This document shows, one piece after another, positions 41,813-45,315 of a stretch of DNA of 45,929 bases; the first letter of the stretch is position 1; the number at the start of each line of letters is the position of its first letter. The notes under the pieces were generated by a model, which was given only the letters and a program-made list of their open reading frames with translations, did no database searches and was not told the DNA's origin. Origin of the DNA: a virus (lineage: Duplodnaviria; Caudoviricetes); the IMG/VR virus record IMGVR_UViG_3300020042_002159, positions 1 to 45,929 of that record. The stretch is one strand, 5' to 3'. Made by a program: the position numbers and the translations under genes.

Positions 41813-41825
41813 CCCCTTGCCAAAC

Positions 41826-41854
41826 TTTACTTATAGCCCCATATCCCACATACT
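41826..41854 (+). promoter_or_regulatory. Early sigma70-like promoter 1
   Basis: TTTACT-17 nt-CATACT; AACTTTACTT shared with promoters 2 and 3. Confidence 0.6.
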
Positions 41855-41905: not shown

Positions 41906-42067
41906 ATGTACACAGTAAATGTACGTTGGGGTGAGCTGACTAAGACTCACAAGGCTTGGACACTTAGCAGTGCCAAGGCATGGATGTACACATACCCTAA
42001 CAAGGATGTGTTTGCAAAGGTGACCAACCTGTTTGGTCGGACAGTTGCAGTGCGGTACAAACGCTAA
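41906..42067 (+). CDS. Small early protein, 53 aa (not in the ORF track)
   Basis: GGGAGA RBS; MYTVNVRWGELTKTHKAWTLSSAKAWMYTYPNKDVFAKVTNLFGRTVAVRYKR. Confidence 0.7.
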   Translation: MYTVNVRWGELTKTHKAWTLSSAKAWMYTYPNKDVFAKVTNLFGRTVAVRYKR

Positions 42068-42074
42068 GCAACAA

Positions 42075-42097
42075 GGGGGATGGTGACAGCATCCCCC
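42075..42097 (+). other. Intergenic hairpin without U-tract
   Basis: GGGGGATG-7 nt-CATCCCCC. Confidence 0.6.
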
Positions 42098-42113: not shown

Positions 42114-42272
42114 ATGTATTACGGTTTAGCTTTGGTGGTTAGCACAATCACCTTTGCCTTGTCGTTAGCCATGTTGCTACCACAAGGTATGTGGCTCGGG
42201 TTAGTGGGCTTGGTAGTTAGCACGGCATTGATCACATTGATCTTGCCTAAGATCCAACACAAGGACGACTGA
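42114..42272 (+). CDS. Small two-TM membrane protein, 52 aa (not in the ORF track)
   Basis: AAGGAG RBS; MYYGLALVVSTITFALSLAMLLPQGMWLGLVGLVVSTALITLILPKIQHKDD; its stop is the UGA of the ribozyme core. Confidence 0.75.
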   Translation: MYYGLALVVSTITFALSLAMLLPQGMWLGLVGLVVSTALITLILPKIQHKDD

Positions 42273-42314
42273 TGAGGCTTTAGTAGCCGAAACCGCAGGG
42301 ATGCGGTCTCGTTC
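42263..42314 (+). ncRNA. Hammerhead ribozyme, type I (copy 1)
   Basis: Stem I GGACGA/UCGUUC; core CUGAUGA; stem II GGCU/AGCC; GAAA; stem III CCGCA/UGCGG with GGGA loop; GUC cleavage triplet, cut after 42308. Confidence 0.93.
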
Positions 42315-42332
42315 ATTAACAAAGGAGAGAAC

Positions 42333-42572
42333 ATGAAAACATTAGGTGAATTGCTTAGAGACAAGATCAACGCTTCGATTGAGAAGCGCCAGCAACTTGA
42401 ACTTCAATGGTGGGATGCATACAAAGAAGTGTACAACGTGCGCCCACGTTGGATAGACATCTCAGGATGGTCTGACGCTAAATTAGTAGAGGAGCTCGAT
42501 GCGCTCAGCAGACCCGCTGAACACGAACACTCAATGGCAAAATATGAAGAACAACTGATGAGGCTTAAGTAG
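42333..42572 (+). CDS. Small early protein bracketed by hammerheads
   Basis: 79 aa; AAGGAG RBS; WDAYKEVYNVRPRW motif. Confidence 0.8.
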   Translation: MKTLGELLRDKINASIEKRQQLELQWWDAYKEVYNVRPRWIDISGWSDAKLVEELDALSRPAEHEHSMAKYEEQLMRLK

Positions 42573-42600
42573 CCGAAACCGCAGGGATGCGGTCTTGTTC
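42549..42600 (+). ncRNA. Hammerhead ribozyme, type I (copy 2)
   Basis: Stem I GAACAA/UUGUUC (covarying with copy 1); same core and stems II/III; cut after 42594. Confidence 0.93.
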
Positions 42601-42619
42601 ATTAACACAGGAGAGAAAC

Positions 42620-42826
42620 ATGGTACAGCTTAGATTATTTGACACACTGGATGACATACAGTACGCAATGAGCTTGACTAGCGCCGAGCTACCAAAAATA
42701 AAGCAAGCAAATTATGATGCATATTGTTTTATCAAAGACATTCGTAGCATCGTACATAAACAAAAACACATGTATAAGAGGGCTGATATGGAATACAAAC
42801 AGGACATGGATCGTATTTATAGGTAA
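42620..42826 (+). CDS. Small early protein, 68 aa
   Basis: AGGAG RBS before the ATG at 42620; followed directly by a terminator. Confidence 0.7.
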   Translation: MVQLRLFDTLDDIQYAMSLTSAELPKIKQANYDAYCFIKDIRSIVHKQKHMYKRADMEYKQDMDRIYR

Positions 42827-42828
42827 CC

Positions 42829-42856
42829 AAGGGAGCTTCGGCTCCCTTTTCTTTTT
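42829..42856 (+). terminator. Intrinsic terminator
   Basis: GGGAGC-TTCG-GCTCCC-TTTTCTTTTT. Confidence 0.9.
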
Positions 42857-42897
42857 GCCGTCACATCGTGCCACCTATTGTAGTTAGAGCGCGTCTC

Positions 42898-42976
42898 TGA
42901 TACCAGTTATCTACGGCGAGAGCGAGAAGTGCGCGCGGGCGACAAGCGCGTTAAATAGAACCTCATCCCCGCGTGG
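42898..42976. repeat. Intergenic ~80-bp element, copy 1
   Basis: TGATACCAGTTAT...GC-rich...TTAAATAG-N3-CTCAT-N6-GTGG. Confidence 0.75.
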
Positions 42977-42979
42977 AAC

Positions 42980-43008
42980 TTTACTTAAAGGCTCCACTAG
43001 AGTACTGT
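42980..43008 (+). promoter_or_regulatory. Early sigma70-like promoter 2
   Basis: TTTACT-17 nt-TACTGT. Confidence 0.6.
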
Positions 43009-43076: not shown

Positions 43077-43736
43077 ATGGCAAAATCAGCCGCAAAAGTC
43101 GTGGAATCCGCCACGCAAGTATCTTTTAGTTCACTAAAAGACTCAGCCTACCAACAAGCGGGAGCCGCTAAGACTCTTGAAGACGTAGCCCGCTACGTTT
43201 TGGGCAAAGTCAAAGACTTCCCAAAAGAGATCCCAACCGAAGCCAAAGACGAACTTTATGACGGCTACCGCATGAAGTTTAATTTGCTCAAGCCTGAAAC
43301 CATGTATGCGGTCATCAATGACCACTACGTAGTTGCTACGCAAGAGCATAAAACCAACGACAAGGTTGAAAAGATCAACATTGGTATTCCATATGCTTAC
43401 AGTTACTCGGCTCAAGAGTTCGGTAAGTTGGCAAACACCAACCCAGCCCTTCACGCTCTTGTCAAAGAGATCAGGGATAAATGTGCTACTTATTGCTCAA
43501 ATCGACTGGGCGACTTAAAAAGAGCCGCTACGAAGATTCTTAAAGAGGGTCAAGAGGGTCGAGCAAGAACCGCTAATAAGAACTTTGGAGAGTTCATTGA
43601 AGATTGGTTCAAAGAAGCCGCGCCAACTAGGCTGATATCAGCCAAGAATCGTGGCGACAAAACCGCTGACGACAAGCGTTGGAATGAAGCCAAAGTGGCT
43701 TTCATGGTGAAGTGGAAGCACTCAGACGCTAAGTAA
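43077..43736 (+). CDS. Early hypothetical protein (paralog A)
   Basis: 219 aa from the ATG after GGAG; clearly homologous to 43965..44570. Confidence 0.85.
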   Translation: MAKSAAKVVESATQVSFSSLKDSAYQQAGAAKTLEDVARYVLGKVKDFPKEIPTEAKDELYDGYRMKFNLLKPETMYAVINDHYVVATQEHKTNDKVEKINIGIPYAYSYSAQEFGKLANTNPALHALVKEIRDKCATYCSNRLGDLKRAATKILKEGQEGRARTANKNFGEFIEDWFKEAAPTRLISAKNRGDKTADDKRWNEAKVAFMVKWKHSDAK

Positions 43737-43793: not shown

Positions 43794-43874
43794 TGATACC
43801 AGTTATTTTCTGTCGCGCGCGGGAGTGCGTGTGTGGCGAGCGAAACCCTTAAATAGTACCCCACTCCCCTGTGG
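43794..43874. repeat. Intergenic ~80-bp element, copy 2
   Basis: TGATACCAGTTAT...CGCGCGCG...TTAAATAG-N3-CCCAC-N6-GTGG. Confidence 0.75.
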
Positions 43875-43877
43875 AAC

Positions 43878-43907
43878 TTTACTTTAGACCCCACACTATG
43901 CCAAGAT
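43878..43907 (+). promoter_or_regulatory. Early sigma70-like promoter 3
   Basis: TTTACT-18 nt-CAAGAT with extended TG. Confidence 0.5.
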
Positions 43908-43964
43908 ACATCATCACTTAGAAAACAACTAGGTGATGTTTCATTAACTTTTTAGGAGAGACAC

Positions 43965-44570
43965 ATGTCTACATTTTCATCATTGAAAGATCTTGGTTAT
44001 CAACAGGCAGGTACAGGAGACAGTTTAGATTCACAGGCAAGTTATGCCTTGGCTAACATCACAGGGTTTCCCAAGGAAATTTCTAGCGAAGCAAGGGAAA
44101 TGCTTTATGAGGGTTATAGATTACGCAACAGCGAGAAACATCCTGCCAAGGTCTATGCTGTGGTCAATGACCATTATGTTCTGGCATCACCTGAACAGGT
44201 CAAAAATGCCAAGGTAGAGAAAATTGAAATTGGTGTTGCGTATGCCTTTGCATATTCACAGCAGGAATTTGGCAAGCTCAAAAACACTAACCCTGCCTTG
44301 CATGGGATCATAAAAGAAATACGGGATGCTGTGGGTGACTACTGTTCTAATCGATTAGGTGATCTAAAACGTGCTTGCAATAAAATACTCGCCAAGCGAA
44401 ATGGCAAAACAGTATCACGCACTACATTGGATTTCGCACAATCCATGCACAAAGATTTCGAAGCTCAAGAGAAATCTGTAAAAGTGAAACAAGCCAAGGG
44501 TGACACAACAGCAAACAGCGCCAAGTATGCCCTTGCCGTAAAAGCGTTCTGGACGACATACAACAAGTAA
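43965..44570 (+). CDS. Early hypothetical protein (paralog B)
   Basis: 201 aa; AGGAG RBS; homologous to 43077..43736. Confidence 0.85.
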   Translation: MSTFSSLKDLGYQQAGTGDSLDSQASYALANITGFPKEISSEAREMLYEGYRLRNSEKHPAKVYAVVNDHYVLASPEQVKNAKVEKIEIGVAYAFAYSQQEFGKLKNTNPALHGIIKEIRDAVGDYCSNRLGDLKRACNKILAKRNGKTVSRTTLDFAQSMHKDFEAQEKSVKVKQAKGDTTANSAKYALAVKAFWTTYNK

Positions 44571-44631: not shown

Positions 44632-44713
44632 TGAAACCAGTTATTTTTCGACGCGCGCGAGAGGGCGCGCATGGCTGAACAAGGCTCTTAATTAGCATCC
44701 CACGCATACGTGG
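44632..44713. repeat. Intergenic ~80-bp element, copy 3
   Basis: TGAAACCAGTTAT...CGCGCGCG...TTAATTAG-N3-CCCAC-N6-GTGG. Confidence 0.75.
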
Positions 44714-44763
44714 TAATTGCTTTGCATCGCCTACCGTTTTCAGAACTGATAGGTTGCAAGGTT

Positions 44764-45113
44764 TGTTCTGGCATTTTGTAGAACATGTTCTACTTTTAAA
44801 AGCATAGTTAGAACAAGAAAAGTGAGGATCCATGCGGGTTGCGGAGGTTTTGTTCTAATGTTCTACGTTTTTTGGGCAGGATGGGGAAACTTGGCAAAAA
44901 GTGCAGAGATCAAGACCTTCTCAGCCAATGCAACGCAAAAAGCAAAAAAACCGAAAAAGGGAGGCATATACCAATTTTCCGTAGAACATTAGAACAACTA
45001 TATATTTTTTTATAAAATAATTAATAAAAACAACAACTTAGAGAACACGCACCCCCCAAAATCCGTTCTATAAGCATAGTACGAAAAGTAGAACAGACTA
45101 GAACATTAGAACA
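44764..45113. repeat. TAGAACA iteron-like array with AT-rich core (putative replication origin)
   Basis: Ten perfect TAGAACA/TGTTCTA copies and three one-mismatch copies in 350 bp of non-coding DNA; pure A/T tract at ~44999-45030. Confidence 0.7.
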
Positions 45114-45176
45114 AAACTCAGCACACAGTTCCCCTGCCTCCAACTGCCGTACAAAACTACTTTTTTTATTAACTGC

Positions 45177-45205: not shown

Positions 45206-45315
45206 GGAGTCTGGGTCGGGAGGTAGATGCCAAGCGACCCTAATTAGCTTCCCACGCATGCGTGGGTTTTGTTTCCACCAATCGGTGTCCTTTGCAGGAA
45301 CCACAAGGAGAGATC

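Follow-up and report, generated by a model that had tools for sequence, protein, structure and literature searches.

The window, meaning the whole stretch of DNA analyzed here (45,929 nt), is a 45.9-kb phage record with an estimated completeness of 72%. Genes for the large terminase and the portal protein lie on its minus strand, and the terminase shares 48–53% identity with those of HTVC023P-like phages. A small operon runs in the opposite direction, on the plus strand, and consists of a putative promoter, ORFs of 53, 52, 79 and 68 aa, and a terminator-like hairpin. The putative promoter (TTTACT-17 nt-CATACT, 41826–41854) was read by eye, scores too low to be called by the promoter scan, and is included in a 28-nt repeat (family D5) with further copies before 43077 and 43965. 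The first gene (53 aa, 41906–42067), which has eight members among related loci, is followed in gap 1 by a GC-rich intercistronic hairpin (42075–42097), an alternative junction module, and then by a hydrophobic 52-aa ORF (42114–42272). Gaps 2 and 3, on either side of the 79-aa ORF (42333–42572), each hold one type I hammerhead. The 68-aa ORF (42620–42826) is the last gene, and the operon ends in an intrinsic terminator-like hairpin with a U tract (42829–42856; hairpin 42829–42848).

None of the small ORFs matched PHROG at E 0.01 or Pfam at curated cut-offs, and the Atlas gave no usable match for the 68-aa protein. The N-terminus of this protein (MVQLRLF) contains QLxLF, which occurs within the first ten residues in 17 of 17 family members, while the remainder of the sequence diverges. 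The motif resembles the consensus for binding the bacterial clamp, QL[SD]LF (PMC12867686), and the product is a candidate early phage protein that may bind the host sliding clamp. A hammerhead precedes the ORF in 15 of the 17 family members.

Other elements occur near the operon. Repeated upstream elements (41814–41841, 42951–42995, 43849–43893, 44688–44723 and 45241–45274) have the form TTAAATAG...CCC...GTGG followed by AACTTTACTT, with a 17–18-nt spacer, and look like operator and promoter units placed before each transcription unit. Just behind three terminators (42896–42909, 43795–43808 and 44634–44647), GA(T/A)ACCAGTTAT, possibly a protein-binding site, is followed by a CGCGCG-rich stretch. 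Two tandem paralogs of about 200–220 aa (43077–43736 and 43965–44570), both equipped with a separate promoter-like element and terminator, have 35 members among related loci and matched no PHROG or Pfam family. An AT-rich, non-coding region (44794–45120) carries direct and inverted copies of TAGAACATTAGAACAA and may serve as an origin of replication or in packaging.

Structure of the two hammerheads

Hammerhead 1 (42263–42315) has stem I at 42263–42268/42309–42314, the core at 42269–42275, stem-loop II at 42276–42288 and stem-loop III at 42292–42307, with a predicted cut after C42308 and A1.7 at 42315. Hammerhead 2 (42549–42601) is laid out in the same way, with stem I at 42549–42554/42595–42600, the core at 42555–42561, stem-loop II at 42562–42574, a predicted cut after C42594 and A1.7 at 42601. 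Both contain CUGAUGA, GAAA, a GUC triplet and three stems of 6, 4 and 5+1 bp, and both show the features that define a type I core, namely CUGANGA...GAAA, an A15.1–U16.1 pair and an NUH cleavage triplet. The topology is likewise that of type I, with stems II and III closed by loops and stem I open (99.4%, 99.2% and 98.3% of cells paired). A scan of the whole window returned these two motif matches and no others.

The core letters are invariant in an alignment of 30 sequences, most of them having been fixed by the search patterns. The stems are 98–99% paired in the 30 relatives, and in 12 of 16 pairs both partners vary. The two copies in the window, which are 93% alike over 71 nt, themselves differ by compensating changes in stem I (GGACGA/UCGUUC versus GAACAA/UUGUUC). 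Single-sequence folding gave only a modest gain over shuffles (z −1.5 to −2.2), and the case that both motifs would act as ribozymes is built on core consensus and covariation. Neither motif reached the Rfam gathering thresholds; the best hammerhead match for ribozyme 1 scored 22.1 bits against a cut-off of 56.3, and none was listed for ribozyme 2. The Rfam families Hammerhead_1 (RF00163) and RAGATH-1-hammerhead (RF03152) share the core and the type I topology with the window motifs, which differ from them in falling below threshold. Six public RNA runs contained 5–11% of the sampled words, and four RNA runs compared with the window supply contigs of relatives, one contig spanning cut site 1 (it could represent DNA or uncut RNA). 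As these data consist of contigs, they give no RNA ends, strand or level.

An initial annotation, made from the letters of the window, had suggested that loop II pairs with the downstream AUUAA as a tertiary contact. Of that helix, only the first pair survives comparison. The last base of loop II covaries with base 1.7, with U-A in 133 cases, A-U in 24, and no A-A or U-U; G occupies the last loop II position in 16 cases. This is the strongest non-helix covariation signal among the aligned ribozymes, and it constitutes the stem I–loop II tertiary contact expected of type I hammerheads, with a presumed pair geometry. The full 5-bp pseudoknot is interrupted by an A-A mismatch in ribozyme 2, whose loop reads UAAGU, and is 49% paired in the 30-relative alignment. 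A run of at least four pairs could form in 18 of 154 ribozymes, compared with 9.5 ± 2.1% in permutations. The covarying helix of four or more Watson–Crick pairs, joining loop II to the 3′ tail, that marks pseudoknot-stabilized hammerheads was thus not found in this set.

A minimal fast hammerhead with a single loop II/U1.7 Hoogsteen pair has been reported by O'Rourke et al. (described in PMC11875169). As far as it is described there, it resembles the motifs studied here in having one contact, from the last base of loop II to the seventh base after the cut, and in leaving that seventh base unpaired by stem I. The orientation differs, since the published pair is loop A/U1.7 and most copies here have loop U/A1.7, the published order being in the minority (24 versus 133). 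In the same source, U7 is reported to be non-essential in the authors' own constructs (PMC11875169). The occurrence of both U-A and A-U in nature supports a tertiary contact of one pair, as had been proposed on structural grounds. Separately, A is found at −7 in 191 of 203 aligned ribozymes and at +8 in 145 of 203, and loop II positions 1 (U) and 3 (A) are conserved besides the covarying pair. Judging from this conservation, further tertiary contacts are likely in this subtype.

Junction geometry among relatives

As noted in the initial annotation, the stop codon of the 52-aa ORF is the first UGA of the core of ribozyme 1 (42270–42272, position +1), and the 79-aa ORF continues through the core of ribozyme 2 and stops at a UAG (42570–42572, position +15) that spans loop II and stem II. 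Also as described there, the predicted cuts fall 24 and 25 nt ahead of ATG 42333 and ATG 42620, and the leaders that would result (42309–42332, 24 nt, GGAG at 42324–42327; 42595–42619, 25 nt, GGAG at 42610–42613) are near-identical, with the letters as quoted. A similar leader had been pointed out ahead of 43965. Its sequence TTCATTAAC does recur at 43940, but no ribozyme stands in front of it.

The near-exact search pattern returned 53 viral loci. With a looser pattern, 7 of the 64 parts of the collection yielded 136 loci, which extrapolates to about 1,200 stored viral stretches (a tool estimate). The descriptor set comprised 216 distinct ribozymes in 189 loci and the window, merged to 203 junctions; it left out L054, which is the window's own locus, and L022, which failed a four-pair stem I filter. 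Within this set, 162 of 201 junctions (those with enough upstream DNA, 14 of them without an ORF) have an upstream stop between −15 and +15 of the first C of the core, compared with 11.6% of random positions, and an ATG (ORF of at least 45 aa) lies 18–40 nt past the predicted cut in 152 of 197, compared with 13.0%; these counts carry the caveats that the search patterns prescribed some letters of the motif, that gene calling followed a simple ORF rule, and that the relatives are not independent of one another. The spacing from cut to start is therefore kept in relatives, as the initial annotation had asked of them, since most junctions fall in this range; four of the 197 have no start and 13 have one closer than 18 nt. 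When each protein family was reduced to one ORF, the upstream-stop rule held in 127 of 151. Among the 34 cases scored as having no abutting gene, 20 do have an ORF of at least 38 aa ending there and 14 have none, so the upstream-stop counts are conservative. A third pattern, in which the two A's before the core were not fixed, yielded 60 new ribozymes, and these followed the stop rule in 43 of 54 cases (one stop lying at +81) and the start rule in 38 of 56.

Leaders with a Shine-Dalgarno motif have a median length of 26 nt (n = 119) and those without one a median of 22 nt (n = 51), and leader length fits the initiation style of the host. The leaders lacking the motif resemble the A-rich leaders of Bacteroidota. 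One relative is a cultured phage, Cellulophaga phage phi19:3, which carries the same subtype with loop A and U1.7. Its GenBank gene calls place the stop of gp051 at −3 and the start of gp050 34 nt past the predicted cut. The ribozyme DNA of the window had no meaningful match in 50,697 GenBank phages, and the nearest cultured phages by terminase (HTVC023P, HTVC027P and DSL-LC04) contained no copy in stretches of 19–22 kb. Like the clustered hammerheads associated with mRNA processing in phages and prophages, the copies occur in tandem, on the coding strand, and around small variable genes, in arrays of up to seven (L070).

Some copies are placed differently. Daejeonella, Mucilaginibacter and Paraflavitalea records (L191, L196, L203, L206, L208 and L209) carry the same subtype, mostly without adjacent ORFs. 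In these six Bacteroidota genome records, which are among 19 loci, 6 of 7 copies have no abutting upstream ORF, none has a start within 40 nt, and all have UAA at −3. This suggests a second use, perhaps beside a non-coding RNA. In a further clade (L007, L016, L018, L020, L038 and L039) a conserved stretch follows the cut, no Shine-Dalgarno start is nearby, and a large gene lies about 115 nt from the upstream stop. The leader in this clade may be a separate element.

Stop codons, ribosomes and gene exchange

Stops cluster at −9, −8, −3, +1 and +11, where the motif supplies UAA, UAG or UGA. The initial annotation had treated translation through the core (EEQLMRLK) as a feature of the arrangement. 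Comparison speaks against this: frames passing +1 are found in 10 of 127 coding families and in 124 of 254 non-coding cases, and homologs of the 79-aa gene stop at +1 in three loci and at −9 in one. The +15 stop in the window follows a small indel beside stem I, and since the stop register varies among the homologs, we regard EEQLMRLK as incidental, a local accident. What relatives keep of the stop/core overlap is a stop on the 5′ half of the ribozyme; a fixed register is not kept. Frames passing +15 number 0 of 127 when coding and 50 of 254 when non-coding, 42 of the non-coding frames continuing beyond the cut, and no upstream gene goes past loop II (0 of 127 families). When the upstream gene is in the frame of −3 it stops there in 37 of 39 families, versus 44 of 88 otherwise. 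The selected trait is an early gene end, with no fixed register. A gene that crosses the cut would yield a message without a stop codon, and this is reason enough for the gene to end early.

Overlap with the stop is specific to the ribozymes, occurring in 71% of 133 ribozyme families, in 0 of 42 terminators (nine families) and in 0 of 9 intercistronic hairpins. As terminators and hairpins never overlap the stop, packing alone needs help from the stop-rich sequence of the ribozyme, to which the overlap may be attributed; a functional overlap is also possible. Such a function was proposed in the initial annotation, according to which cleavage is gated by translation: with the stop held on the 5′ half, terminating ribosomes would set when or whether the ribozyme folds, a reading that we consider unlikely. 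The tie that gating would make between release of the downstream mRNA and translation of the upstream gene is doubtful to the same degree. At all 162 close stops, a terminating ribosome of usual footprint would cover stem I, and the far greater frequency of stop overlap in ribozymes than in terminators or hairpins also fits gating. Upstream RNA lowers the predicted formation of stem I from 0.84 to 0.31 (n = 179), so a passing ribosome could matter. However, this effect is generic, as stem I formation with native upstream RNA (0.31) is close to that with shuffled RNA (0.28; p = 0.52, n = 132) and equals that with coding RNA from further upstream (0.31). A designed upstream competitor that the ribosome would clear is not supported, since native upstream RNA is no stronger than shuffled RNA against stem I.

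Further observations stand against gating. The stop register shifts inside one gene family (+15, +1 and −9), deeper read-through of the core is avoided rather than favored, and hairpin junctions likewise lie 6–13 nt from the stop, within reach of the ribosome. An upstream ORF of at least 38 aa is missing in 14 of 213 viral cases and in 6 of 7 Bacteroidota genome-record copies. The specific competitor and the fixed ribosome stop position of a leader-peptide-type switch were not found at these junctions. With stem I under the terminating ribosome, folding is probably perturbed temporarily by translation, and ribosome gating is physically plausible, with no specific support. There is a small chance that the compact subtype, which phages of several bacterial phyla carry, senses translation at the gene junction; under that improbable reading, stops in three frames would end any upstream gene on the 5′ half of the ribozyme. 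Gating, if real, would represent a new, protein-free coupling of translation to mRNA processing.

Unmasking of the ribosome-binding site was also considered and rejected. The Shine-Dalgarno sequence lies 15 nt past the cut, outside stem I, and is left unpaired by the uncut ribozyme. Predicted access to the start region changes from 0.62 to 0.68 on cutting (n = 169), with a gain above 0.15 in 24 of 169 cases, and because access barely shifts the element is not an unmasking switch.

The junctions are exchanged among genes. Across the 53 closest loci, three different families occur downstream of the ribozyme that follows the 52-aa family, and six occur directly ahead of the 68-aa family. A ribozyme comes before the 79-aa gene in 2 of 6 loci, and a single gene pair has a ribozyme at its junction in two loci and a plain hairpin there in four. 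Distinct junctions between family genes comprise 31 ribozymes, 9 hairpins, 24 tight or overlapping junctions and 3 of other kinds, and because the kinds vary between family genes, we regard the ribozyme as one of three interchangeable junction types. Shuffling of this sort could point to a role at the DNA level, in which the ribozyme would be a repeated 60–70-nt homology block for gene swapping and cutting would be neutral or secondary. Genes are indeed shuffled at ribozyme junctions, and the variable stem positions are more similar within a genome (0.60–0.73) than between genomes (0.34–0.38). However, as sequences diverge, compensating changes preserve the core, the three stems and the tertiary pair, even between neighbors in an array, which a recombination block would not need, and shuffling occurs at hairpin junctions too. 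A DNA-level role is therefore, in our estimate, quite improbable.

The RNA between two ribozymes (286 nt in the window) might instead be ligated into a circular mRNA, since by known chemistry the cuts would leave a 5′-OH and a cyclic phosphate on a fragment holding a whole gene. A full stem I could be re-formed in 24 of 56 adjacent pairs, with a null of 9%. Cross-pairing of the non-circular kind is equal or better in 33 of 56, and since this opposite pairing is as good or better, we put the circle-compatible pairing down to shared ancestry. The two ribozymes of the window would have an A-C mismatch in the stem I that closes the circle, and in the parts of their study consulted here Perreault et al. 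detected no circles and no spliced products (PMC3088659). Circular mRNA is accordingly the least probable reading, and we consider it highly unlikely.

Proposed role and relation to known systems

Structure, loop II/1.7 covariation, stop/start geometry, avoidance of read-through and gene/junction exchange were all established from the sequences. They probably reflect two copies of a widespread hammerhead cassette that, needing no protein, would divide the early operon transcript into mRNAs of one gene each. With an assumed transcript start, self-cleavage behind 42308 and 42594 would produce RNAs of about 450, 286 and 260 nt. Each upstream piece would be a complete gene with its 3′ end in stem-loops II and III and a terminal cyclic phosphate, and each downstream piece would begin with a 5′-OH and a short, context-free leader that is poor in G (8% G at leader positions +8 to +15). 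The cut would thereby allow each gene to be translated and degraded independently of its neighbors, and uncoupled, context-free genes would suit a region where genes are often exchanged. Tight packing onto a motif that bears stops (UAA/UAG at stem I, UGA in the core and UAA/UGA in loop II), together with selection for a gene end before the cut, is the most likely source of the stop overlap. Terminating ribosomes would unfold stem I briefly and may postpone the cut, which we read as a side effect.

The benefit of the cut is something that we infer. In hosts with an RNase E-type system a 5′-OH end protects mRNA from RNase E, and the stabilization of downstream mRNAs proposed in the initial annotation may operate in this way. 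Cleavage can also hasten decay, as described for glmS (PMC4033574). The part of the initial annotation that proposed protein-free processing of polycistronic phage RNA is supported, cleavage itself being predicted.

RNase III processing of T7 early RNA, with which this processing had been compared, likewise splits a long message, but it needs a host protein and leaves 5′-phosphate ends. Type I ribozymes of eukaryotic RNA viruses lie in short intergenic regions before ORFs and release subgenomic mRNAs, as proposed here. Those viruses use cap-independent initiation and their ribozymes have no conserved tertiary contact, whereas the present case is a DNA phage with bacterial initiation signals. 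RiboJ-type engineered insulators (Lou et al. 2012, cited in PMC4033574) are similar in that a cut just before the ribosome-binding site strips away upstream context; as described there, they differ in being synthetic and placed behind a promoter.

The closest precedent is that of Perreault et al. 2011 (PMC3088659), who described clustered hammerheads flanking single variable prophage genes and proposed that they produce single-gene mRNAs. The tandem copies that they studied in prophages cleave both in vitro and in E. coli (PMC3088659), and surround small, variable genes as in the window. In their halovirus example the motif lies 13 nt upstream of the start codon, and a 5′ end was mapped to the cut. 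That work stresses pseudoknots, whereas the subtype here has none, and the parts of it consulted contain no stop-codon geometry or cut-to-start statistics. We found no report of the stop/start geometry in the openly accessible literature, and the portions of PMC5737381 and PMC7761336 consulted add nothing further on geometry. A 2019 review, in the sections consulted, calls the question of why phages carry self-cleaving ribozymes open (PMC6765202). Cellulophaga phage phi19:3 on C. baltica offers a cultured pair in which the cut, its purpose and control by the ribosome could be tested. Clustered phage hammerheads have been known since 2011; what is new is a variant with measured junction rules, a large subtype missed by Rfam in which the gene ends before the core is passed and the next start lies about 20–38 nt past the cut.
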